The notes beneath the pieces are model-generated. The model saw nothing but the letters and a program-made list of their open reading frames with translations. It made no database searches and was not told where the DNA came from. A stretch of 64,000 nucleotides of DNA, from assembly GCA_964291285.2 (NCBI GenBank), contig OZ219786.1:1088001-1152000 (forward strand). Reading direction: 5' to 3'. The translations under genes and the position numbers were made by a program. Below are positions 6,634 to 60,756 of this stretch, one piece after another; within the stretch, counting starts at the first letter, position 1, and each line of letters starts with the position of its first letter. This stretch comes from Alphaproteobacteria bacterium. GTDB lineage: Bacteria; Pseudomonadota; Alphaproteobacteria; Bin95.

Positions 6634-8647
6634 CCCGACTTCCGCAACTCGGGGGTCATGAGGATGCTAACTCATTGAATAGCCTTGATCGTCTCCCCGA
6701 GGGTCGGCACTACAAGGCGGCGAACGGAGAGGCGGCGCCGTGTGCCGTCAGGCGGAGATCCGGGGTGCGGGTTGCTGCGGCCAGGTCATGCCGAGCTGTT
6801 GCAGCAGTAGCTCGTGCTCCTTGTTCGGCCGGGTGTGGCGCGGCAGGACGAGGTGCCGGCCGTCGGTGGTTGGCAGATGGACGTCCACCATCTGGATGGT
6901 GGCGAAGGCCTCAAGGATGGCGCGTGGGGTGAGGCCCGGGGCGCGCGGCCGGGCGAGGTTCTTCAGGGTCACCAGCAGGCAGTAGGCGATGAACGAGACG
7001 AAGATATGCGCCTCGATGCGCTCTTGGCGCTGATGGAAGATGGGGCGGATCGCGAGGTCGTGCTTGAGTTCCTTGAACGCCTGCTCGATCTCGACGAGCT
7101 GCATGTACAGATGCCACAGCGTGGCGGGGTCTTCGGCGACCATGTTGGATCGCAGCAGGTAACGGCCCTCGCGGCGGCGGACCTGGCGCAGCCGGTCGCG
7201 CTGCAGGCGGAATGAGAAGCCGTTGGCGGCGAGTTCGCTGTCGGTCCCGGGCACGGTGATGTCGACCAGGCTCCAGGCCCGGCCGGCCTCCTTCCTGGCG
7301 GCGCCGAGCTTGAGCAACAACTGATCCCGGCTGTTCGACTGCCCTTGCAACTCGGCCAATCGACGCCACAGCCTCTTCAGCCGGCGCCGGCGCATGCCGC
7401 GTTCCTTCACCTGCCGCCCCTCGCTGCGCACCAGGACGTAGAGCTCGCCATCCTCGACCAGAAGCTTGACAGTCACGGACTGGCGCACCTCCTGCCAGGG
7501 CAGGCCCAGGAACACCTTCTCGAGCCGCGTCAGCCGGCCCTTGGGCGTGCCCACCAGGTAGCGCACCGGCGCCTCGCCCTCGCGCATCGCGGCCAGCGTC
7601 TCCTCGGTGGGGATGCCGCGGTCCATGATCCACACCCGCTCGGAGCGGCCATACTGATCCTCGATCTTCTTGAGGAACGCCGCCAGCGTGGTGTCGTCGG
7701 AGGTGTTGCCCGGCATCACCTCATAGGCCAGCGGAAAGCCCTGCGGCGTAACGATCAGGGCGATCACCACCTGCACGCAGTCGGGCCGCTTGTCCCGGCT
7801 GTAGCCGAAGCGGCGCTTGTCATCGAACGGCGGATCGCTCTCGAAGTAGGTCGAGGTCAGGTCGTAGAGCAGCACGTCGAAGCGCGCCTCGAACAGCGTC
7901 GCCCAGCGGTCGCGCAGAAACGAGAAGAAGCCCTGCTTGTGCGCCAGCAGCTTGTCGAGACAGCGATAGAGTGTGTCGTCGGCGATCGCCCGCTCGCCAC
8001 CCAGAAGATCGCGAAGCGCGCTGTGCTCATACCAGTGACGGTGAAGGCGCCACTCGCTGCCCGGGTCGATCAGCCGGTAGCAGACCTGGATCTTCAGGAT
8101 GTCCAGCCACCGCGTGCCTTGCCGGCTCGCCGGCAGCCGCTCTTCCCAGAAGCGGTCCAGGTCCAGGCGGTCCCACAAGGACAGCGCCAGCCAGCACGCC
8201 CCCCACTGGCGCGGGTCGTGAAGCGCCACCTGCGAGAGGTCGATCTTCACCACTTCGCAAGTCAGCGCCGGCGCCTCCCGGTCCTCGGGAAACAGCGCCA
8301 TCTGCCGTGATCGCGACTTGCCCTCCACCACCTCGATCGAGCGGCACCACGCCGCTCGCTGGCTGTCGTTGATCTCCCCGAGATAGAGCACCTGACGCTG
8401 AACAACCCGACCGCCGTGGACCCGGACGTTCTCCACAACGCTCCAGTAGCGGTGCTCCTTGCCGTCCTTGAAGCGTCTCTTGCAGCGCACGAACATCAGC
8501 GCAGCGTCCGGATCTTCGCCAGCCCGATCAAGGGGGTAGGTCGGCACTACAAGCCGGTCCCGAGAGGTACTGCACCGAAATCCGACACTTCTCGCGCCGG
8601 AAAACCGTCAAATCAGTCGATTCTCAAGCCGAGTTGCGGAAGTCGGG
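6634..8647 (-). mobile_element. IS1634-like insertion sequence, copy 1 (2014 bp)
   Basis: Terminal IR CCCGACTTCCGCAACTCGG / CCGAGTTGCGGAAGTCGGG; 4-bp TSD CTAA (6630-6633, 8648-8651). Confidence 0.9.
6748..8547 (-). CDS. IS1634-family DDE transposase
   Basis: YDLTSTYFE, GYSRDKRPD, MDRG, IEQAFKELK; true start may be the later MFVR. Confidence 0.9.
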   Translation of the reverse strand: MPTYPLDRAGEDPDAALMFVRCKRRFKDGKEHRYWSVVENVRVHGGRVVQRQVLYLGEINDSQRAAWCRSIEVVEGKSRSRQMALFPEDREAPALTCEVVKIDLSQVALHDPRQWGACWLALSLWDRLDLDRFWEERLPASRQGTRWLDILKIQVCYRLIDPGSEWRLHRHWYEHSALRDLLGGERAIADDTLYRCLDKLLAHKQGFFSFLRDRWATLFEARFDVLLYDLTSTYFESDPPFDDKRRFGYSRDKRPDCVQVVIALIVTPQGFPLAYEVMPGNTSDDTTLAAFLKKIEDQYGRSERVWIMDRGIPTEETLAAMREGEAPVRYLVGTPKGRLTRLEKVFLGLPWQEVRQSVTVKLLVEDGELYVLVRSEGRQVKERGMRRRRLKRLWRRLAELQGQSNSRDQLLLKLGAARKEAGRAWSLVDITVPGTDSELAANGFSFRLQRDRLRQVRRREGRYLLRSNMVAEDPATLWHLYMQLVEIEQAFKELKHDLAIRPIFHQRQERIEAHIFVSFIAYCLLVTLKNLARPRAPGLTPRAILEAFATIQMVDVHLPTTDGRHLVLPRHTRPNKEHELLLQQLGMTWPQQPAPRISA

Positions 8648-8667
8648 CTAATACGGGAGGATCCGGA

Positions 8668-13039: not shown

Positions 13040-13483
13040 TCAGACGATAGTCCGGTCGCCGAGCCGGCGGACGGCCCCGGAGAACACGGCCACGGTCTCG
13101 CCATCCTTCTCGCGCACCTCGACCGCATACATGCCGGTGCGTCCCGCATCCGCCTGTTCCCGCGCCTCGGCCAGCAGGAGGCGGCCCGGCCGGCCCGGAC
13201 GCAGGAAGGTGATCGAGCAGAACTGCGCGACCGAGACCCGGTTGCGGCTGTTGCTCGCGAAGGCCATGGCGGAATCGGCGAGGGAGAAGATATAGCCCCC
13301 GTGACAGACCCGGTGGCCGTTCAGCATCTCCTCGGTCACCGGCATCGACATGCGCGCCCAGCCGGCGCCGACGGCCTCCAGGCGGATGCCGAGATTCCGC
13401 GACGCATCGTCCTCCGCATACATGGCGTCGGCGACGCGCCGGGCCAGTGCATCGGCAGCCCCCGTCGTCCGCCCCGCGTCCAT
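13040..13483 (-). CDS. paaI: Hotdog-fold thioesterase, PaaI-like
   Basis: MLNGHRVCHGGYIFSLADSAMAFASNS. Confidence 0.85.
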   Translation of the reverse strand: MDAGRTTGAADALARRVADAMYAEDDASRNLGIRLEAVGAGWARMSMPVTEEMLNGHRVCHGGYIFSLADSAMAFASNSRNRVSVAQFCSITFLRPGRPGRLLLAEAREQADAGRTGMYAVEVREKDGETVAVFSGAVRRLGDRTIV

Positions 13484-14685
13484 CAGTGCGCGGCCTCGAA
13501 TTCGTGGATGTAGTCCCGCGTTTCCGGCACCGCGTCCGGGTCCTTCGCAAGCTGGATCTGGAACACGGTCACGATGTTGTTGAGGAACCCGACCTCGCAT
13601 GAGGTGAGGTAGAACTCCCACATCCGGCAGAACCGTTCGTCATACATCTCCCGCGCCCGGTCCCAGTTCGAAACGAAACGGGTCCGCCACGCCCTCAGCG
13701 TCTTCGCATAGTGGCGCTTCAGAACCTCTATGTCCGTCACAAGCAGGTGCTGCTCCTCTATCGCCGGCGTCAGCTCCGAAAGCGTCGGCAGATAGCCCCC
13801 CGGGAAGATATAGCGGGTGATCCACGGGTTGACCGGACCAGGCGTGTCATAGCGGCCGATGGTGTGCACAACCGCAACGCCGTCATCCGTCAGCAGCTCC
13901 CGGAGCTTCCCGAAAAACTCCCGGTAGTGCGCCAGACCCACATGCTCCAGCATCCCCACCGAAACGATCCGCTCATAGCGGCCCGCCTCCTCCCGGTAGT
14001 CCTGGAGCCTGAAACGCACACGCTCCGACAGGCCCGCTTCCGCCGCGCGCGCATTCGACAACTCATGCTGCTCGTGGCTCAAGGTCACGCCCGTCACATC
14101 CACATCCGCCTGCTCCGCCAGGTAGAGCCCGAGCCCGCCCCAGCCCGAGCCGATGTCCAGAACACGGTCCCCCGAACGCAAAAGCAGCTTCGCCGCCAGA
14201 TGCGTCTTCTTCCGCCGCTGCGCCGTCTCGATATCGTCATTGTCCGACGCGAAATAGGCGCAGGAATACTGACGGTCGCTGTCCAGGAACAGGTCGAAAA
14301 GCTCCGGCTTCAGGTCGTAGTGGTGCGAGACCTTGCGCCGCGCCGACCCAACCGGATTGTGCGTACGAAGACGCCCCGCTGCCTTCCGCACGAAGTCCAG
14401 AAAACGCGAATCGCTCTTGAGCCTCGCGCGGCGCTGATTGACGAGGGCGATGGTGAGGAAGTCGAACAGCGTGCCGTCCTCGACCGTCAGCCGCCCGTCC
14501 ATATAGGCCTCGCCCACCGCAAGCGCCGGGTTGCGGAACATGGCGCGCGAAACCGAGGAGTCGTGCAGGCGGACAGCGGCCGACGGACCGCCCGCGCCTT
14601 CCAGCCTGTGTCTGCCCCCTTTCGGGTCGATAACGGTCAAAGTGCCGATTTCGACGAAACGGCGCAGAAACGGCAGATACAGCAT
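13483..14685 (-). CDS. cfa: Cyclopropane-fatty-acyl-phospholipid synthase family methyltransferase, copy 1
   Basis: HYDL, YSCAYF, LDIGSGWGG, IVSVGMLEHVG, YIFPGG. Confidence 0.85.
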   Translation of the reverse strand: MLYLPFLRRFVEIGTLTVIDPKGGRHRLEGAGGPSAAVRLHDSSVSRAMFRNPALAVGEAYMDGRLTVEDGTLFDFLTIALVNQRRARLKSDSRFLDFVRKAAGRLRTHNPVGSARRKVSHHYDLKPELFDLFLDSDRQYSCAYFASDNDDIETAQRRKKTHLAAKLLLRSGDRVLDIGSGWGGLGLYLAEQADVDVTGVTLSHEQHELSNARAAEAGLSERVRFRLQDYREEAGRYERIVSVGMLEHVGLAHYREFFGKLRELLTDDGVAVVHTIGRYDTPGPVNPWITRYIFPGGYLPTLSELTPAIEEQHLLVTDIEVLKRHYAKTLRAWRTRFVSNWDRAREMYDERFCRMWEFYLTSCEVGFLNNIVTVFQIQLAKDPDAVPETRDYIHEFEAAH

Positions 14686-14735
14686 GGCCGCGCCCTCCCC
14701 GGCTTTCCGGCCGCGTCACGCCTGCCGGGCGCCGG

Positions 14736-15938
14736 TCAATGCGCGGCCTCGAATTCGTGGATGTAGTCCCGCGTCTCCGGAACGGCGTCCGGGTCCTTCG
14801 CAAGCTGGATCTGGAACACGTTGAGCTCCTTCGACAGGAAGCCGACCTCGCAGGCGGTGAGGTAGAACTCCCACATCCGGCAGAACCGCTCGTCATACAT
14901 CTCCCGCGCCCGGTCCCAGTTCGAAACGAAACGGGTCCGCCACGCCCTCAGCGTCTTCGCATAGTGGCGCTTCAGAACCTCTATGTCCGTCACAAGCAGG
15001 TGTTGCTCCTCTATCGCCGGCGTCAGCTCCGAAAGCGTCGGCACATAGGTGCCGGGAAAGATGTAGCGCAATATCCACGGGTTGACCGGGCCGGGCGTGT
15101 CATAGCGGCCGATGGTGTGCACAACCGCAACGCCGTCATCCGTCAGCAGCTCCCGGAGCTTCCCGAAAAACTCCCGGTAGTGCCCCAGGCCCACATGCTC
15201 CAGCATCCCCACCGAAACGATCCGCTCATAGCGGCCCGCCTCCTCCCGGTAGTCCTGGAGCCTGAAACGCACACGCTCCGACAGGCCCGCTTCCGCCGCG
15301 CGCGCATTCGACAGCTCATGCTGCTCGTGGCTGAGCGTCACCCCCGTCACGTCCACATCCGCCTGCTCCGCCAGGTAGAGCCCGAGCCCGCCCCAGCCGG
15401 AGCCGATGTCCAGAACACGGTCCCCGGGGCGCAGCAGAAGCTTCGCCGCCAGATGCGCCTTCTTCCGCCGCTGCGCCGTCTCGATATCGTCATTGTCCGA
15501 CGCGAAATAGGCGCAACTGTATTGCCGGTCGCTGTCCAAGAACAGGTCGAACAGCTCCGGCTTCAGGTCGTAGTGGTGCGAGACCTTGCGCCGCGCCGCG
15601 CCCACCGGGTTGTGCGTGCGAAACCGGTTTACGGCCTTCCGGGCGAGGTCCGCAGGTCCCTTGGTGCGCCCGAGATGCGCCTCGCGCCGGTTCACCACCA
15701 GAATGGTCAGGAAATCGAACAGCGTGCCGTCCTCGACCGTCAGCCGCCCGTCCACATAGGCTTCGCCCACCGCAAGCGCCGGGTTGCGGACGAGTGCCCG
15801 GCTCACCGAGGAATCGTGCAGGCGGACGGTAGCCGAGGGCCCGCCCGCGCCCTCGACGCTATGCGTGCTTCCGCGCGGGTCGATTACGGTCAGCCGACCG
15901 AATTGGACGAGCCGGCGCAGAAACGGCACGAACAGCAT
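14736..15938 (-). CDS. cfa: Cyclopropane-fatty-acyl-phospholipid synthase family methyltransferase, copy 2
   Basis: Same motifs and same length (400 aa) as copy 1. Confidence 0.85.
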   Translation of the reverse strand: MLFVPFLRRLVQFGRLTVIDPRGSTHSVEGAGGPSATVRLHDSSVSRALVRNPALAVGEAYVDGRLTVEDGTLFDFLTILVVNRREAHLGRTKGPADLARKAVNRFRTHNPVGAARRKVSHHYDLKPELFDLFLDSDRQYSCAYFASDNDDIETAQRRKKAHLAAKLLLRPGDRVLDIGSGWGGLGLYLAEQADVDVTGVTLSHEQHELSNARAAEAGLSERVRFRLQDYREEAGRYERIVSVGMLEHVGLGHYREFFGKLRELLTDDGVAVVHTIGRYDTPGPVNPWILRYIFPGTYVPTLSELTPAIEEQHLLVTDIEVLKRHYAKTLRAWRTRFVSNWDRAREMYDERFCRMWEFYLTACEVGFLSKELNVFQIQLAKDPDAVPETRDYIHEFEAAH

Positions 15939-20578: not shown

Positions 20579-20729
20579 GCGGGTTTCCCCGGCCACCTTC
20601 CGGATTCGCGGATCCGCCAGGGCCGGCTTCGTGTTGCGCGGCACCCTCCCGGTGGAGTGGGCCCCTGGTCTCGGACAGTTTTGTTGTAGGAAATTGACAG
20701 GTGCGCGGTCATTGGAAGGATCGACGCCG

Positions 20730-21080
20730 ATGAGGAAGCACCGCACGCACAGCATGGCCTTCAAGCGCCAGGTCGTTGAGGAGTATCTGGCAGGCGAGAC
20801 GTTTTACGGTCTGGCCCGCCGTCATGACCTGTCTCGCACCCTGATCCGGCTGTGGCTGGAGAAGTATGAGGCCGGGGCCTTCGATGAGGAGGCCGAGGCG
20901 GCCGACAGGCTCCGGGCATATGAGGCCCGGATCGCGACGCTCGAACGGCTGGTCGGCCGGCAGGCCGCGGAGCTGGAGTTCCTAAAGGGGGCTTTGCGGC
21001 AAGGACGGCGGTCGAGGCGCGCGCCCATGTCCGTGATCGCCGGCCCCGAGGCCTCTCCGTCGCCGAAGGATGCCGACTGA
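20730..21080 (+). CDS. IS3 OrfA (HTH + leucine zipper)
   Basis: MRKHRTHSMAFKRQVV..., LERLVGRQAAELEFLK; -1 frame is open from about 20981, suggesting a frameshift at CTA-AAG-GGG. Confidence 0.85.
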   Translation: MRKHRTHSMAFKRQVVEEYLAGETFYGLARRHDLSRTLIRLWLEKYEAGAFDEEAEAADRLRAYEARIATLERLVGRQAAELEFLKGALRQGRRSRRAPMSVIAGPEASPSPKDAD

Positions 21081-21874
21081 TGGGGATCGCGCGCTCCACC
21101 TGTTACCGCGAGCCGCAGAGCCCGGTCGACGACACCGCCCTGGTCGAGGCGATGCACGAGATCAAGGACGAGTTCGAGGCCTATGGCTGGCGGCGCATGC
21201 AGGCGGAACTTCGCCACCGGGGCCGGACCGTCAACCACAAGAAGGTCAGGCGGCTGATGCGCGAACACGCCCTGCAGCCGCCGCGCAAGCGCCGCTTTGT
21301 CGCCACCACGGACAGCGGCCACGACGGGCCGGTCTTCCCGGACCGGTCCCGGGACTGCGAGGTCGAGGGCCCGAACCGGCTCTGGGTCGCCGACCTGACC
21401 TACATCGCCATCCTGGACGGCTTCGTCTATCTGGCGGCGGTCATGGACGCCTGGTCGCGCCGCATTGTCGGCTACGCGCTCGGGCAACGCATCGACGCGC
21501 GCCTGACGCTCGCGGCGCTCGACAAGGCGATCGGGAACCGAAGCCCTCAGCCCGGCTGCATCCACCACTCCGACAGGGGCTCGCAATACGCCGCCCATGC
21601 CTACCGGACCCGGCTCGACAAACACGGGATGGTCGGCTCCATGGGACGACGAGCCAACCCCTACGACAACGCCATGATGGAGAGCTTCATGAAAACCCTG
21701 AAGGTCGAGGGCGTCTATCCCATGGCCTTCGAGACCGCCGAAGACGTCGCAAGGCAACTGCCGCGCTTCATCGACAGCTACAACCACAGACGCCTGCACT
21801 CCGCGCTCGGATATCTGAGCCCAAACCGCTTCGAGGAAAAACAACATCGCAACCCTGTCAAAAATGCCGCTTGA
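21080..21874 (+). CDS. IS3 OrfB DDE transposase
   Basis: WVADLTY, HSDRGSQY, DNAMMESF. Confidence 0.92.
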   Translation: MGIARSTCYREPQSPVDDTALVEAMHEIKDEFEAYGWRRMQAELRHRGRTVNHKKVRRLMREHALQPPRKRRFVATTDSGHDGPVFPDRSRDCEVEGPNRLWVADLTYIAILDGFVYLAAVMDAWSRRIVGYALGQRIDARLTLAALDKAIGNRSPQPGCIHHSDRGSQYAAHAYRTRLDKHGMVGSMGRRANPYDNAMMESFMKTLKVEGVYPMAFETAEDVARQLPRFIDSYNHRRLHSALGYLSPNRFEEKQHRNPVKNAA

Positions 21875-21905
21875 AACTGTCCGACCCAAGGGGCCCACTC
21901 CACGG

Positions 21906-23262
21906 AAGTGTCATGGAATGTCATGTTTTGTCATGGTCGGGGGCGGAACCGGCGTTCTCCGGGCCGGTCCTCCGCTTCTTCCCCTTCTTCTTTTTCTGCT
22001 TCTTCCCCCTCGCCGCCGGTCCGCTCCAATCGTCGTCTTCGTCGCCGCTCCGCTCTTCCCGTTCGAGGCGGTCCTGCCTGCGTTCCTCGACCTCCTCCGG
22101 GGCCCAGGGGTCGTAGATGTCGTCGTAGCCGTTGCGGCGCTGGTAGAGCCAGTCATGTTCGGCGCCGTCGGCCCGGTCGTCGTCGGTGCTGTCCTCGTGG
22201 CCGGGCGTGTCGGCAGCGGCCCAGGGGCAGTATTCGTAGGTTTCCTCGGGCGGGTCGTCGGCCGGCGGCAGGTCGTTTGCCGGCGCGGGCGGGGGGCCGA
22301 AGCCGAAGGGCAGGCGGGTGCGCTCCTCGACGGCCGCGGCGAGCCTGCGGGCGGCCTCCTCATGCGCGGCCCCGTCGAAGCCCTCCTGCGCCTCCATCTC
22401 CTCGCGCCGCTCGCAGTGGCGGGCGAGCGCTCGTTCGGCCCGGTCCCGCCCCCGGCGCACGGCGTCTGCGAGCGGTCCGGGCTCGGTGCCGGTCTCCTGC
22501 GCCTCGCCCGCTTCGATCTCGCCGAACTCGTCCTCGTGCGGCAGCGGCCAGAGGCGGGCCCGGTTCGCGCCGGCCGGACTGACAAGCCCGGCGATCTCGG
22601 CCTGGAAGCGCAGCACCCGCAGCATCATGTAGGCCGAGCCGCTGGCGACGGCGGCGTCCCAGGCCTGCTCCGAGCGGGCGAGCAGGATGCGGGCCTCGTT
22701 GCGTTCGGTGCGCCGCCACGACAGGCGGATGCGGCGCACGCGCTCGACGATCCAGGGCCGCTCCAGCAGGGCGCATCCGGTCTGGCGGGCGGAGCGCTCC
22801 GAATATCCGGCCTGCCTTGCGGCGTGTGCGGCATTGCCGGAGGCGGTGTAGTGGCGGCAGAAGGCTTCCTGGCGGGTGGAAAGCGCGACGGCGGGCTCGA
22901 TGACGGGCATGGGGTGCGGGTCCTTTCGTTCCGCTGGCGTTCGACAGGCAGGCCCGGCAGCGGTACGGGACCGCGCCGGGCCGGGAGGGCGGCGTTGACG
23001 GGCAGCGCCGCCCCGTCGGGGAGCGACCCTGTTTCGCGCGTATCGCGTGCGGGCGCGGGCGGGTGTCGGCGCCGGCGCGGTTCGCGCGCCTGATTGCGCG
23101 CGCGAGCCAGAGGGCGCACTTCGCCTGTGCGTCGAATCGGGGTCGTTCCGCGCCGGGACAGCGCGAAGGGAAGCGGTCCGCGCGGACTTCGCCTCCCTCG
23201 GACCTATTCTAGCACATTTTCCTAGAATGCAAGCTCTTTTCGGGAACTATTTCAAATTTATT
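21906..23262 (-). repeat. CATGACA-terminated element, copy A (long, protein-coding)
   Basis: TGTCATGGAATGTCATGTTTTGTCATG at 21910; GACCCTGTTTCGCGCGTATCGCG and GCCGGCGCGGTTCGCGCGCCTGATTGCGC leader motifs; AT-rich box 23206-23232. Confidence 0.8.
21921..22910 (-). CDS. Protein with N-terminal terminase-small-subunit-like HTH and acidic then Lys-rich tail
   Basis: LSTRQEAFCRHY..SGNAAHAARQAGYSERSARQTGCALL..P.I matches the TerS N-terminal pattern; SD-like AAGGA upstream. Confidence 0.65.
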   Translation of the reverse strand: MPVIEPAVALSTRQEAFCRHYTASGNAAHAARQAGYSERSARQTGCALLERPWIVERVRRIRLSWRRTERNEARILLARSEQAWDAAVASGSAYMMLRVLRFQAEIAGLVSPAGANRARLWPLPHEDEFGEIEAGEAQETGTEPGPLADAVRRGRDRAERALARHCERREEMEAQEGFDGAAHEEAARRLAAAVEERTRLPFGFGPPPAPANDLPPADDPPEETYEYCPWAAADTPGHEDSTDDDRADGAEHDWLYQRRNGYDDIYDPWAPEEVEERRQDRLEREERSGDEDDDWSGPAARGKKQKKKKGKKRRTGPENAGSAPDHDKT

Positions 23263-23280
23263 CCTGCTTATTCTCAAGGA

Positions 23281-24222
23281 TCATCCTGCAATGAGTAGTT
23301 GATATGGGATGGGTTGTGTTCTGACGGCGCTGTGAAGGAAGCGTGGGATCATGGAGTTGAGTTGGTATCGTCGGTTGTATCGCCATGCGAAGCTGGCGAG
23401 GTAGCGTTCGGCATGGTCGGGACCGAGCTTTCGGTAGGTTCCGGCGATGGCGCTCTTGATGTTGCCGAGGGTCGTGTTGACCCATTTGAAGGGGGCCATG
23501 CGGGCTGCCCGGCGGCCTGAGCCGGTACGGATGGCGCTGTGGCTTGCGGCGATGCCGTCGAGGGCGTTCCAGCAGTGCAGGGCATCGGTGACGACCTCCG
23601 TCCCCGGGGCCAGCCAGCGTTTGGCGCCGCGCGCGATCTCGCGCTTGCGGAAGCCCCTGACCGGGACGAGCTTGACCTTGCGCGGAGCCCCTTCGGCGCT
23701 GGTCGAGACCGCCGCCACGAAGGGCGTCTTGCCCGGCGCGCCCCGGCCGCGCTTGCCGCCGGAGCGCGACCCGCCGAGATAGGCGTCGTCCATCTCGACC
23801 CGTCCTTCGAGCCGCGTGTCGGCTTCGCGCCGGGCCATCACCGCCATGATCTTCTGCTTCATGCTCCAGGCGGTCGGCTGCCTGACCCCGAGGCGGCGAC
23901 CGAGTTCCACCGACGAAATGCCGTTCTTCGCCGTCACCACAAGGTGGATCGCCGCAAACCACAACGTCAGGGGCAGCTTGGTCGAGTGGAAGATCGTCCC
24001 CGACGTCACCGAAACCTGCTTCTTGCAGCGGTTGCACTGGTAAAGCCTGCGCCCGGCAAGAATGCAGTGCCCCCGATGCCCGCAGGAGCCGCACTCGAAA
24101 CCGTTCGGCCAGCGCAATCGGGCTAGCACCGCCCGGCACTGATCCTCCGTGCCGAACGACGCTCGGAACGCATCGTCGCTCAAGCCACGAACACGCGATG
24201 CAACCTTGAATGCCATATCCAT
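23281..24222 (-). CDS. IS1595-family transposase
   Basis: RWPNGFECxxC Zn ribbon, VEMDDAYLGG, VVTD, YLASFAWRYNRR. Confidence 0.9.
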   Translation of the reverse strand: MDMAFKVASRVRGLSDDAFRASFGTEDQCRAVLARLRWPNGFECGSCGHRGHCILAGRRLYQCNRCKKQVSVTSGTIFHSTKLPLTLWFAAIHLVVTAKNGISSVELGRRLGVRQPTAWSMKQKIMAVMARREADTRLEGRVEMDDAYLGGSRSGGKRGRGAPGKTPFVAAVSTSAEGAPRKVKLVPVRGFRKREIARGAKRWLAPGTEVVTDALHCWNALDGIAASHSAIRTGSGRRAARMAPFKWVNTTLGNIKSAIAGTYRKLGPDHAERYLASFAWRYNRRYQLNSMIPRFLHSAVRTQPIPYQLLIAG

Positions 24223-37008: not shown

Positions 37009-37289
37009 GGTTTGTCCTCCCGCGTCGATTGCTCCGTCACACTCCAATCGGACGGTGCTCCTGAACCCGATTCCACCGGGCCCCATCGGTCGAATTATCG
37101 TAGTCCAGTCATGGGACGATTGCAAAGTCCGCATCGGGCCGGAGACAAAGAAATTCCGCTTTCCTTCCGGACATCCACCCTTGGCCGACGCCCCGATTCA
37201 GTCCGGCTCCAATGTCGGCACCGGCATTGAGGTCCCGGCAGTGGAGCCCTGGCGCTTCGCAACGGCATGATTGGACCCGAGACGGAAGC

Positions 37290-37731
37290 AGCATGTTGTT
37301 AATTGAATCTTGGTAACAAATCCGTAAATGATTTGATTCCTGAAAATCAGATGCTACATTAGGCTGGACGGGGCGGCGTCCGGGGACCGCTTCGTGCTCC
37401 GCGGCGGCGATGCGAAAAAACCTGAGGAGCTGACAGGGCATATGCGCCCTGCGTTCGGGGTTTCGCGCACGCAGGCACAATCGGGCGCGCGATGCACGCG
37501 CCGCCGCGAAACGCGGGCGGGCACGCCCGCTCGCCCGCGCACATTACACGCAAAGTAGGGTCCCGCTGCTCGGACAAGCCGGCGGCGGAGATGGACGGAT
37601 CGAAACCGGGGCGACAGGAAGAACCTATGCCGAAGATAGAGGACCGCCGAAACCGGATGGAATACCCGCACCCCATGCCCAAACGGGCGACGGGATATGC
37701 GCCGCGCACACGCAGATCATGACATTTCCGG
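37290..37731 (+). repeat. CATGACA-terminated element, copy B (short, opposite orientation)
   Basis: TTGATT-N16-TACATT-AGG at 37333-37363; leader motifs; CCCGCACCCCATGCCC identical to copy A start; mini-ORF 37675-37722 MPKRATGYAPRTRRS; left boundary approximate. Confidence 0.7.
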
Positions 37732-37826
37732 TGGAGTAGGTCCCTTGGGCCGGACAGTCCGATCGAGAAGACCTGTCAACTCGACAGGGATTGGAAGGAT
37801 CGCACCCATGAGGAAACACCGGGCGC
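37732..37826 (+). mobile_element. Truncated IS3-family left end (relative of the IS at 20653)
   Basis: TGGAGTAGGTCCCTTGGGCCGGACAGT ... ATTGGAAGGATCG..ATGAGGAAACACCG matches the IRL and OrfA start. Confidence 0.8.
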
Positions 37827-48370: not shown

Positions 48371-48494
48371 ATGTGGAGCGTAGTCGGCACCGATGGTGCC
48401 GCCTTCCGGTGCGGGCCGGAAACCGCCGCCCCGGCAGGCGGCCGCTATCCGCATCCCGGCCTCGCACCCGCCGCCGGAACGGGAACACCCATCG

Positions 48495-49050
48495 AACATG
48501 TCATCAGATGTCATGTTTTGTCATGCGGGCCCGGCAGGACACCCTGCAATGTGTCATGAGATGTCATGATCTGCATGCGCACGGTGCATATCCCGTAGCC
48601 TGTTCGGGCATGAGCTCCGGCCCTCCTTCACTCTCCTTCACTTGTGAGGGAGACCCTCTCTCGATCCGGCAAGGTCTTTTCGAGCCGCACGGCCGCTGGC
48701 CCTCTCCCGGCCTCTCCTGGAGGCGGGAGAGGCGAGTTCGAGCGTCCTGCCGACTTTCTCGAAGCCGCATCCGTCAGCGCCCCGCATATTGTTCCCTCAT
48801 TCCGTTTCGTTCCACTCCGTTCCGTTCTTCCCGCCGTCCGGTTGCCGAAGCGGCAGGACCCTGATTCGCGCATATCCTGCGCGGGCGCGCCCGCGTGGCC
48901 GCCGGCGTGCGTTTCTCAGGGGTTTTTTCACGCCGGCGCGACAGGCGAAACGAAACGGCTTCGCGAATGCCGCTTCCTTCCTCCTGCTACCTATAATAAT
49001 ACAATTTTCCTTAGATCAATTCATTATGAGAAATATTACCAAAAAATCAG
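48495..49050 (-). repeat. CATGACA-terminated element, copy C
   Basis: TGTCATCAGATGTCATGTTTTGTCATG near 48500; mini-ORF 48564-48611 MPEQATGYAPCACRS with AAGGAGG; GACCCTGATTCGCGCATATC at 48857; TTGATC-N15-TATTAT-AGG at 48990-49019. Confidence 0.72.
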
Positions 49051-49227
49051 GAATTGAGATCCGGCTTCATTGCGCGATTCAATCTGCAAGGCTCGAATGC
49101 AGGGCCCAGCCTCCGTTCCAGCGGCAGCTTCAGCGGTTGAGCCTGCTCTCCACCGGCTGCGGCAGTGGCGCGAGTCAGGGCCGGACCCCGATCAAGTCCG
49201 GGGCGACGAGCGCTTGCGCCGGCCGCC

Positions 49228-56812: not shown

Positions 56813-56914
56813 GGGTTCGTTCTCCCGCTTGAATTGCCGTCGCCGCGAGGCTGCGACCGGAGGCCTCCCGCGTCAAGGCTGCCGCAGGCGCACATCTCCG
56901 GAAGCCCCCTGCGA

Positions 56915-57192
56915 CGTGTCATGGAATGTCATGTTTTGTCATGTTCCGGGGGCGGAATGTCATGTTCTGTCACGGTCCGGTCTGCGCTCCGGTCGCCTGG
57001 GTTGCTTCGGATCGTTCGTTCCCGGGGCATCTCGGCCTCCTTTCCGTTGCCGGTTTCCACCGCCGGTTCGTCCCTTGCGGCGGGACCCTAGTTTCGCGCG
57101 TATCGCGCCCGCCTGTCCGCGCGCGTCGCCGCCGGCGCGGTTCGCGCGCCTGATTGCGCCCGTGCGCGCGACGCGGGCGCACAGGCGCACCT
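56915..57192 (-). repeat. CATGACA-terminated element, copy D (left part; continues at 60470)
   Basis: Same 27-nt TGTCATG triple as copy A; mini-ORF 56929-57030 (33 aa, ends HDKT) with AGGAGG; leader motifs. Confidence 0.8.
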
Positions 57193-57357
57193 TGTATCTC
57201 TCCGGATCGTTGTTGCAGCTATAGTCGCAACAGCGGGAGCGGACGGGAGACCGCTAGCCCGACTTCCGCAACTCGGCTTGAGAATCGACTGATTTGACGG
57301 TTTTCCGGCGCGAGAAGTGTCGGATTTCGGTGCAGTACCTCTCGGGACCGGCTTGTA

Positions 57358-59157
57358 GTGCCGACCTACCCCCTTGATCGGGCTGGCGAAGATCCGGACG
57401 CTGCGCTGATGTTCGTGCGCTGCAAGAGACGCTTCAAGGACGGCAAGGAGCACCGCTACTGGAGCGTTGTGGAGAACGTCCGGGTCCACGGCGGTCGGGT
57501 TGTTCAGCGTCAGGTGCTCTATCTCGGGGAGATCAACGACAGCCAGCGAGCGGCGTGGTGCCGCTCGATCGAGGTGGTGGAGGGCAAGTCGCGATCACGG
57601 CAGATGGCGCTGTTTCCCGAGGACCGGGAGGCGCCGGCGCTGACTTGCGAAGTGGTGAAGATCGACCTCTCGCAGGTGGCGCTTCACGACCCGCGCCAGT
57701 GGGGGGCGTGCTGGCTGGCGCTGTCCTTGTGGGACCGCCTGGACCTGGACCGCTTCTGGGAAGAGCGGCTGCCGGCGAGCCGGCAAGGCACGCGGTGGCT
57801 GGACATCCTGAAGATCCAGGTCTGCTACCGGCTGATCGACCCGGGCAGCGAGTGGCGCCTTCACCGTCACTGGTATGAGCACAGCGCGCTTCGCGATCTT
57901 CTGGGTGGCGAGCGGGCGATCGCCGACGACACACTCTATCGCTGTCTCGACAAGCTGCTGGCGCACAAGCAGGGCTTCTTCTCGTTTCTGCGCGACCGCT
58001 GGGCGACGCTGTTCGAGGCGCGCTTCGACGTGCTGCTCTACGACCTGACCTCGACCTACTTCGAGAGCGATCCGCCGTTCGATGACAAGCGCCGCTTCGG
58101 CTACAGCCGGGACAAGCGGCCCGACTGCGTGCAGGTGGTGATCGCCCTGATCGTTACGCCGCAGGGCTTTCCGCTGGCCTATGAGGTGATGCCGGGCAAC
58201 ACCTCCGACGACACCACGCTGGCGGCGTTCCTCAAGAAGATCGAGGATCAGTATGGCCGCTCCGAGCGGGTGTGGATCATGGACCGCGGCATCCCCACCG
58301 AGGAGACGCTGGCCGCGATGCGCGAGGGCGAGGCGCCGGTGCGCTACCTGGTGGGCACGCCCAAGGGCCGGCTGACGCGGCTCGAGAAGGTGTTCCTGGG
58401 CCTGCCCTGGCAGGAGGTGCGCCAGTCCGTGACTGTCAAGCTTCTGGTCGAGGATGGCGAGCTCTACGTCCTGGTGCGCAGCGAGGGGCGGCAGGTGAAG
58501 GAACGCGGCATGCGCCGGCGCCGGCTGAAGAGGCTGTGGCGTCGATTGGCCGAGTTGCAAGGGCAGTCGAACAGCCGGGATCAGTTGTTGCTCAAGCTCG
58601 GCGCCGCCAGGAAGGAGGCCGGCCGGGCCTGGAGCCTGGTCGACATCACCGTGCCCGGGACCGACAGCGAACTCGCCGCCAACGGCTTCTCATTCCGCCT
58701 GCAGCGCGACCGGCTGCGCCAGGTCCGCCGCCGCGAGGGCCGTTACCTGCTGCGATCCAACATGGTCGCCGAAGACCCCGCCACGCTGTGGCATCTGTAC
58801 ATGCAGCTCGTCGAGATCGAGCAGGCGTTCAAGGAACTCAAGCACGACCTCGCGATCCGCCCCATCTTCCATCAGCGCCAAGAGCGCATCGAGGCGCATA
58901 TCTTCGTCTCGTTCATCGCCTACTGCCTGCTGGTGACCCTGAAGAACCTCGCCCGGCCGCGCGCCCCGGGCCTCACCCCACGCGCCATCCTTGAGGCCTT
59001 CGCCACCATCCAGATGGTGGACGTCCATCTGCCAACCACCGACGGCCGGCACCTCGTCCTGCCGCGCCACACCCGGCCGAACAAGGAGCACGAGCTACTG
59101 CTGCAACAGCTCGGCATGACCTGGCCGCAGCAACCCGCACCCCGGATCTCCGCCTGA
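57358..59157 (+). CDS. IS1634-family DDE transposase
   Basis: Protein identical to 6748-8547. Confidence 0.9.
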   Translation: MPTYPLDRAGEDPDAALMFVRCKRRFKDGKEHRYWSVVENVRVHGGRVVQRQVLYLGEINDSQRAAWCRSIEVVEGKSRSRQMALFPEDREAPALTCEVVKIDLSQVALHDPRQWGACWLALSLWDRLDLDRFWEERLPASRQGTRWLDILKIQVCYRLIDPGSEWRLHRHWYEHSALRDLLGGERAIADDTLYRCLDKLLAHKQGFFSFLRDRWATLFEARFDVLLYDLTSTYFESDPPFDDKRRFGYSRDKRPDCVQVVIALIVTPQGFPLAYEVMPGNTSDDTTLAAFLKKIEDQYGRSERVWIMDRGIPTEETLAAMREGEAPVRYLVGTPKGRLTRLEKVFLGLPWQEVRQSVTVKLLVEDGELYVLVRSEGRQVKERGMRRRRLKRLWRRLAELQGQSNSRDQLLLKLGAARKEAGRAWSLVDITVPGTDSELAANGFSFRLQRDRLRQVRRREGRYLLRSNMVAEDPATLWHLYMQLVEIEQAFKELKHDLAIRPIFHQRQERIEAHIFVSFIAYCLLVTLKNLARPRAPGLTPRAILEAFATIQMVDVHLPTTDGRHLVLPRHTRPNKEHELLLQQLGMTWPQQPAPRISA

Positions 59158-59237
59158 CGGCACACGGCGCCGCCTCTCCGTTCGCCGCCTTGTAGTGCCG
59201 ACCCTCGGGGAGACGATCAAGGCTATTCAATGAGTTA

Positions 59238-59369
59238 TACCAACGGTCGTTGATTGGAACCTATAGCAGAGCCTCCCTCCGCAGCTCGCCCCCTGAGCCG
59301 AGGCCTCCTACTGCAAGAGGTAATCTCCGCCGAGAGAGGCTAATCGGTTCTTATCTGTGGCCGGTGGTA
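59238..59369. mobile_element. 132-bp MITE inside IS1634-like copy 2
   Basis: Absent from copy 1; imperfect 24-bp IR TACCA.CGG.C...GAT..GAACC; TTA duplicated (59235-59237, 59370-59372). Confidence 0.85.
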
Positions 59370-59384
59370 TTAGCATCCTCATGA

Positions 59385-60452
<1,068 letters not shown>

Positions 60453-60469
60453 CCGACAACACAGTCGCT

Positions 60470-60645
60470 CTCCTGTCCGCTCTCGCCGGGGGTTTTGCGG
60501 CCCCCCAGCCATGCTTCCCTGCGCAGAAAAGCGGAAAGGCGGCCCCGGGAGCCGCCTTTCTCTCATGCCTATTCTACACCATTTCGCTGAAAGTCAAGCT
60601 CATGAGGGAACAAAAGATGGAAATATCGGGTGATTTTCTTACAAC
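60470..60645 (-). repeat. CATGACA-terminated element, copy D (right part with promoter-like box)
   Basis: TTGACT-N15-TAGAAT-AGG on minus strand (60568-60597); right boundary approximate. Confidence 0.7.
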
Positions 60646-60707
60646 CCGTTGAACCGGCGGGACAATCTCATGCCGGCGGCCCCGATTTGGGCTCATGTCC
60701 TATTCTC

Positions 60708-60756
60708 GTCATGCCCGGCCCCGGAACAGGTCCGACGATATGGGGACGGGCATGAC
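60708..60756. repeat. REP-like palindrome
   Basis: CGTCATGCCCG ... CGGGCATGACG inverted repeat downstream of the UbiD-like gene. Confidence 0.55.

Follow-up and report, generated by a model that had tools for sequence, protein, structure and literature searches.

The four related sites in the window, which here means the whole 64,000-nt stretch of DNA analysed, are best explained, at a probability of about one half, as members of a phage-derived cassette family that multiplied and recombines, the cassette consisting of a small-terminase (terS) gene and a pac-like site. Copy A would be an intact member, and copies B, C and D gene-less or remnant ones. It is likely, judging from sequence, that the small-terminase-like protein recognizes the phased CATGACA array with which its own gene ends, in the manner of a phage TerS at pac. 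The family itself, its copy numbers, its range within one genus, the helical phasing of the heptamers and the association, in diverged lineages, of the gene with an array on its own strand were demonstrated by genome comparison.

Architecture of the four copies

An ordered architecture of promoter-like box, GC-rich leader, reading frame and CATGACA repeats had been described for four sites in the first-pass annotation; all four were found in place and could be aligned. The doubled heptamer has eight matches in the window, compared with 0.01 expected from shuffles. The sequence noted earlier as identical in A and D is the 27-mer CATGACAAAACATGACATTCCATGACA, which indeed has the same letters in both.

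Copy A lies on the minus strand. Its 5' end is an AT-rich tract (23233-23262) from which the usual TTGTTC boundary motif is missing, because an IS1595-family element abuts it. The promoter-like box TTGCAT-N15-TAGAAT-AGG (23206-23232), with the TGn of an extended -10 element, is followed by the leader (22911-23205). The latter contains the 5' hairpin of the predicted leader structure (23168-23196; compensatory changes across 35 copies) and the conserved core (23021-23128), the most repeated part with about 85 BLAST copies. The gene (21921-22910) encodes a small-terminase-like protein of 329 amino acids, with a helix-turn-helix (HTH) at aa 11-60, helices to about aa 107-160 and then an acidic C-terminal extension. 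Three CATGACA heptamers in 10-bp phase (21909-21935) overlap the stop codon. The protein ends in HDKT, as does the 33-aa frame of copy D, and both frames are as first reported. Copy A had been regarded as the full form, and it proved to be one of ten intact copies in the source genome.

Copy B, on the plus strand, comprises a box (37333-37360), a leader core (37432-37567), a 31-codon frame (37627-37722) and a single heptamer (37718-37724). Copy C, on the minus strand, has a box (48993-49019), a partial leader core (48853-48907), an unrelated insert (about 48620-48790), a 15-codon frame remnant (48564-48611) and heptamers at 48552-48568 and 48509-48525. The places given earlier for the copies were right; cover by repeats extends B to 37285-37728 and C, with a conserved 3' extension, to 48422-49050, the 48422 end being set by that cover. 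Likewise, 15-aa frames had been reported for both copies; the one in C stands, while in B the 15 residues are the 3' half of the 31-aa frame. The start ATG CCC, once thought invariable, is no family rule, since the frame of B opens ATG CCG AAG and other subfamilies begin with ATGACC and other variants. In the BLAST cover against the rest of the genome, the stretch 48422-49209 unites copy C with a neighbouring repeat, and 56897-60718 unites copy D with its insertions. The neighbour of C is a separate repeat of about 110 nt (49102-49209), with 13 other copies in the source genome and many in two relatives (G004 and G009).

Copy D, also on the minus strand, is divided into a 5' part (60470-60645) and a 3' part (56897-57192), as had been recognized. 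The gap between them (57193-60469) is accounted for by an IS110-family element on the plus strand (transposase 59421-60452) that carries a nested IS4-like element; its insertion divides the leader core between GGAGAG and GTGCGCC. The 5' part contains the box (60571-60597) and a terminator-like hairpin (60534-60560) with a 12-bp stem followed by a T-run, and the 3' part the remainder of the leader core (57081-57182), the 33-aa frame (56929-57030) and heptamers at 56958-56964 and 56917-56943. A head hairpin of the D type, lying directly behind the promoter-like box, is a possible attenuator.

The chassis carries more than one kind of cargo. An acidic ORF of 192-234 aa is the alternative to the terminase-like gene; it gave no Pfam or PHROG match and no informative relatives. 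Further frame types are of 31-41 aa ('MPK..EYP', the B/C type) and of 23-33 aa (the D type). In 12 copies of the 'MPK' frame, variable sites are spread equally over the three codon positions (30/34/31), and hence this frame was not taken as coding. The proposal that B, C and D arose from A by internal deletion had to be abandoned: B and C fall in the subfamily with the short 'MPK..EYP' frame, and D is a derivative of the acidic-ORF form, not of A. The 5' part of D is 98.9% identical to the head of a unit with a 234-aa acidic ORF, and in the relative G006 the orthologous site (L027) holds the longer acidic-ORF form. Two family members in the source genome (C3:1311889-1314864 and C3:662357-665237) contain a module, oppositely oriented in the two, that pairs a 400-aa N6/N4 DNA methylase with an ORF of 339 aa.

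Size and range of the family

The motifs are far from restricted to the four sites. The source genome contains 252 overlapping doubled heptamers, 121 clusters of at least two heptamers (a few of them unrelated to the family), 95 leader cores and 78 promoter-type 5' ends, and for 80 of the 121 clusters a partner 5' end lies at most 6 kb away. Most units measure 0.4-0.9 kb, while ten are about 1.33 kb long. Of 16 further genomes of the genus, 12 contain the 27-mer, against none of 24 genomes from outside it, and copy number varies from 0 to about 115 among species of this one genus. Eleven of the 12 array-bearing relatives have 1-12 Terminase_2 genes each, and the four array-free genomes have none. 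The description of a dispersed, multi-copy and unnamed family was therefore correct; it is roughly a hundred copies strong in this genome and confined to a clade of uncultured alphaproteobacteria. The DNA of copy A matched nothing in collections of phages and plasmids, and the listings and abstracts of the literature contained no such element. Among the contigs of public sequencing runs, fragments resembling the terS-like ORF (about 88-90% alike) turned up in one RNA library and in one viral-fraction metagenome, which is evidence of neither transcription nor packaging.

The small-terminase-like protein

Terminase_2 (E 1.8e-11, aa 11-70) is the only Pfam match of the 329-aa protein; the full form thus lacks a transposase domain, in agreement with the first reading. 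A PHROG small terminase also matched copy A's protein, and a profile search of PDB sequences found the DNA-binding domain of SF6 G1P (4zc3) with an E-value of 1.6e-4. An AlphaFold model built on a 37-homologue alignment reached pLDDT values above 90 at aa 11-60 and of 64-77 for the helices at 52-90 and 93-107, and was low elsewhere. When this model was submitted to Foldseek, the top matches were small terminases throughout, none of them reaching E 0.001; 4zc3 was matched with a target TM-score of 0.85 and an rmsd of 1.5 Å over 56 columns at 41% identity, and 3zqq with an E-value of 3.9e-3. Distant relatives of ordinary TerS length align to about aa 5-165. From these results, the first third of the protein is taken as a TerS core and the remainder as a clade-specific acidic extension. 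The HTH is of the TerS type, and the helices behind it may correspond to the central oligomerization domain with which small terminases form a ring.

By tblastn, the source genome was found to have eight copies that span the 329 aa without gaps, two that are shorter and eight remnants of the N-terminus, and all 12 of its Terminase_2 matches fall in family units. In the eight ungapped paralogues, variable sites are distributed 25/14/59 over the codon positions. The ORF varies at 98 of 987 sites (10%), whereas the promoter and leader of the same copies vary at 227 of 412 columns (55%), and it was therefore concluded that the protein is under selection and has been joined to different heads. Among 37 homologues, many columns are invariant up to about aa 290. 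Purifying selection on the protein of the intact copies is shown by these substitution patterns. On either side, the intact copies border on unrelated stretches of host DNA or on IS elements. No large terminase was found beside any family copy, and the single TerL of the source genome (C1:1001315-1003195) lies away from all 12 Terminase_2 matches.

The heptamer array and its linkage to the gene

Successive heptamers in the source genome are spaced by 10 nt in 252 cases, by 21 nt in 22 and by 32-33 nt in 20. Since 313 of 328 spacings are within 1.5 nt of a multiple of 10.5, all heptamers lie on one side of the helix. About 12 nt past the last heptamer are weakly conserved. Linkage was examined in 80 loci, which were retrieved through an alignment of relatives that have diverged to about 45-55% identity with A's protein. 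In 56 of these loci the 3' end of the gene coincides with a doubled heptamer or is closely followed by one, all matches being on the gene's strand. At locus L050 of a sister lineage, the gene-array pair is kept behind a different promoter and a short leader, with a canonical GAAC-N7-GAAC box like that of the host lexA. As the pair persists with other promoters and leaders, gene and array form the stable unit, and head and leader are lineage-specific. A direct repeat between the 3' block of the leader (CAGGGTCCCGCC) and a block behind the array (CGCAGGGGGTCCCGCC) was seen by eye in several copies and also in tandem mini-units, and it was considered as an integron-like cassette boundary.

In the phages SPP1 and SF6, pac has short repeated boxes overlapping gene 1. 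The cassette resembles the G1P system of these phages (Terminase_2; 4zc3, 2cmp, 3zqp/3zqq) in the N-terminal HTH, the helical segment behind it and the short repeated boxes in or beside the gene. It differs in its protein, which has twice the length owing to no counterpart of G1P alone and ends in a conserved acidic extension, in the absence of an adjoining large terminase and in its position outside any phage genome. Moreover, it is present as 10 intact and about 100 gene-less copies per chromosome set, and the 3' end of its gene carries 7-nt repeats that keep exact helical phase. The small terminases of SaPI/PICI satellites redirect packaging, and with these the cassette would share a stand-alone terS with its own recognition site and a reliance on the large terminase and capsid of another element. 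Unlike the satellites, it has no integrase, replication or capsid-remodelling genes, measures 0.4-1.4 kb and occurs about 100 times per genome.

According to the terS/pac-like reading, the protein made by the ten intact copies would bind arrays in cis and in trans and so mark about 100 sites. The complexes might then recruit a nuclease or motor of the terminase type, for which the only large terminase found is that of a T7-like cluster (see below). DNA ends or pairing at the arrays could drive recombination between copies and thereby produce chimeric copies and synteny breakpoints. Expression may be controlled by the extended -10 promoter and the structured leader, in whose place the sister lineage has the canonical SOS box. 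The absence of an adjoining TerL, the alternative acidic cargo and a model that is confident for the HTH alone, with the rest below 80 pLDDT, were counted against this reading. A pure pac-site role would also leave unexplained why promoter and leader are retained in the majority of copies, which are gene-less.

Should the arrays indeed be bound by the protein, a DNA-recognition module of phages (terS and a pac-like site) would have left the phage and reached about 100 chromosomal copies, an arrangement that was not found in the libraries searched. It would offer a handle on the evolution of packaging specificity, on whether gene transfer agents can be aimed at chosen sites and, given the copies at synteny breakpoints, on repeat-driven genome remodelling in symbionts.

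Spread and probable recombination of the copies

A transposable element family of a new type is a rather unlikely alternative. The TTGTTC motif, promoter and leader at one side and the array with its 12 or so following nucleotides at the other would be cis-acting ends, B, C and D would be non-autonomous, and the units would be moved either by some further enzyme or by the TerS-like protein together with a nuclease of the host. The wide range of copy number within one genus fits this well, as do conserved ends around a variable or deleted interior and the ORF-skipping joints seen in several metagenome assemblies. The TTGTTC motif marks the 5' limit of similarity, and GTTC is present at most 5' boundaries. 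Copies also tend to lie behind the 3' ends of genes, the upstream gene being co-oriented in 42 of 63 cases, a preference that speaks for the same reading.

The hallmarks of transposition are missing, however. The earlier statement that terminal inverted repeats and target-site duplications are absent was upheld: the window contains only three inverted pairs, none at the ends of an element, and in 54 elements the longest word shared by an element's own flanks averages 5.04 nt as against 5.08 in controls. The cargo has no transposase domain. Y1 HUH transposases (PF01797), the kind behind IS200/IS605-derived and REPIN-type elements, gave no match in the source genome and hits in just one of 17 genomes of the genus, leaving 15 of the 16 relatives without any, while controls gave hits in six; the Y2 transposase (PF04986) of IS91/ISCR rolling-circle elements, which have GTTC/CTTG next to one end, was not matched in the source genome, though the control genomes were equally silent. 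The cassette is comparable with promoter-bearing MITEs and REP/BIME repeats in being small, intergenic, multi-copy, often located behind gene ends and a landing site for IS elements, but it has neither inverted repeats, target-site duplication nor a RAYT/Y1 transposase, and its full form is protein-coding.

The search for empty sites in relatives likewise counts against transposition. No clean one was recovered at eight loci of the source genome (L001, L003, L004, L009, L010, L019, L020 and the locus of L030) or at 20 loci from the relatives G005 and G006, so that neither mobility nor the label 'selfish' given to the family earlier is established. Either the flanks were placed on different contigs or at a distance from each other, or other genes linked them. 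At L004, L009, L010, L019 and L030, where a complete or near-complete relative contained both flanks, they are far apart in at least one relative, and adjacent flanks were seen only at L009 in G003, with a different gene in the gap. What was observed instead is that copies are located at synteny breakpoints and are chimeric. In G006, the copy at L028 combines the left flank of one copy of the source genome with the right flank of another, the flanks at L029 are 94% identical while the element is 77% identical, and the site L030 corresponds to a locus at which the source genome retains just a decayed head.

Promoter-like box and leader

The sequence TTGNNN-N15/16-TANNNT occurs at 48 of the 78 5' ends in the source genome. 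Among these 48, the spacer is 15 nt in 41, the upstream hexamer is TTGACA in 24, the downstream one is TATGAT in 33, and TGn precedes the -10 box in 45. The box is accordingly described as promoter-like, of the extended -10 type. A plain sigma-70 scan, which demanded a spacer of 16-18 nt, found no promoter in any of A-D because the spacer of the box is 15-16 nt. The SOS (LexA) motif of alphaproteobacteria is GTTC-N7-GTTC; the host lexA carries GAAC-N7-GAAC and the host recA GTTC-N7-ATTC. A LexA box as a general feature of the family was rejected, as GTTC-N7-G[AT]TC is found at merely nine of 78 5' ends, where it abuts the -35 box, and at none of A-D as read.

No part of the family is better conserved or more often repeated than the leader core. 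For 35 leaders, RNAalifold gave a weak consensus (-13.96 kcal/mol, covariation term -0.61). In a structure chosen by the authors, made up of the 5' hairpin and one core helix, 92.4% of the cells in the same 35 leaders are paired and 21 show double changes; shuffles gave 7.3, and none of 500 reached the observed value. The four pairs with double changes are all located in the 5' hairpin; the core helix varies only by G-U-compatible transitions. The core is nearly invariant and allows many alternative GC pairings, and a scan of column pairs found no double changes in it. Rfam gave no match at the gathering score in the whole window and none at E<=1 in 21880-23280, in line with the first reading, in which no named family was recognized. 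The earlier suggestion of an ncRNA-bearing element has limited support: compensatory changes are confined to the 5' hairpin, and the core is too invariant to be informative.

It has to be considered whether the family is a regulatory or RNA unit, that is, a strong promoter that is portable and whose structured leader or small RNA acts on neighbouring genes, with the TerS-like gene as passenger and the heptamers as a protein roadblock or a source of start codons. The frequency of the box and of TGn, the conservation and repetition of the core, the excess of compensatory changes in the hairpin and the short frames without codon signature (30/34/31) are all in its favour, and at one site in G006 the array lies 35 nt ahead of the start codon of the next gene. 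It is nevertheless judged unlikely: the downstream gene is co-oriented in just 32 of 63 cases, no Rfam family was matched even at E<=1, the consensus structure is weak, the core with its alternative GC pairings has zero double changes, and the gene-array pair survives in a lineage without this leader.

The T7-like particle cluster

The source genome has one T7-like cluster (L016, C1:989000-1006000) with portal, head, tail, TerL and a GTA-type holin, in which a transposase gene lies between a scaffold-like ORF and the major head gene; a CI/LexA-like repressor adjoins. No small terminase is recognizable inside this cluster. A family member, with its array at L016:790-826, is situated about 3 kb before the portal gene, and a 130-aa ORF before the portal had no informative relatives. 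No HK97-type capsid cluster was found in the genus, which gave two weak matches only.

The known gene transfer agents have been described as packaging without sequence-specific sites, as far as the accounts of the RcGTA small terminase (PMC6854486) and of CcGTA control (PMC11150451) go. The host of the cassette resembles GTA producers in having a domesticated head-tail-TerL-holin cluster (Pfam GTA_holin_3TM) with no recognizable small terminase inside; it is unlike them in that the cluster is present also in cassette-free species. A T7-like TerL occurs in 15 of 17 genomes of the genus, including three of the four without the cassette family. Co-occurrence of cassette and T7-like TerL was thus tried and rejected, and the particle does not need the cassette.

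The arrays could be about 100 pac sites for which the ten terS-like genes supply the recognition subunit missing from the domesticated T7-like particle; such a role is considered improbable. If it were true, the genome would mark itself for capsid-mediated transfer, or a selfish cassette would drive its own neighbourhood into particles, and recombination at cut ends would give rise to the chimeric copies and synteny breakpoints. That the copies are decaying remnants of many prophage or satellite integrations, functionless today, is very improbable: the protein is of the phage type and many copies are truncated and riddled with IS elements, but the units measure only 0.4-1.4 kb with unrelated flanks and no accompanying phage gene, purifying selection maintains ten paralogues, and the architecture is kept in about 100 copies and across lineages.

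Insertion sequences around the family

Family copies serve as landing sites for three IS families. An IS3-family element (20653-21902, plus strand; orfA 20631-21080, orfB 21080-21874) is inserted 6 nt behind the last heptamer of copy A and is accompanied by a 3-bp duplication, CCG. Sequences like the tip of its inverted repeat, TGGAGTGGGCCCC (at most one mismatch), number 34 in the source genome, and 17 of them lie directly behind a heptamer array; some of these tips are solo, for example the IS3-IR-like tip at 37732-37744 behind copy B.

The IS110-family element that splits copy D has two segments (57193-57254 and 59412-60469) on either side of the nested element. All of its 12-13 copies in the source genome are flanked ..CACCT|IS|CTCC.., which is the reverse complement of the start of the leader core, GACGGGAG|AGGTGCGC, and about half of them sit inside leader cores. 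Hence, the element is apparently sequence-targeted and uses the family as its landing site. With IS110 at one fixed position of the leader core and IS3 6 nt behind the array, the family is a natural test bed for targeted insertion.

The nested IS4-like element (57255-59411) encodes a 599-aa DDE_Tnp_1 transposase (57358-59157), and 1983 nt of the element recur, inverted and with 100% identity, at 6668-8650. In the source genome, at least five further members of the family have their head or leader interrupted by the same IS. The IS1595-family transposase beside copy A, with zinc ribbon and DDE domain, is encoded on the minus strand (23281-24222) and abuts the 5' end of the copy. Elsewhere in the window, a tandem duplication with a period of 1253 nt was observed at 13466-15938, its two units being 79-94% identical.
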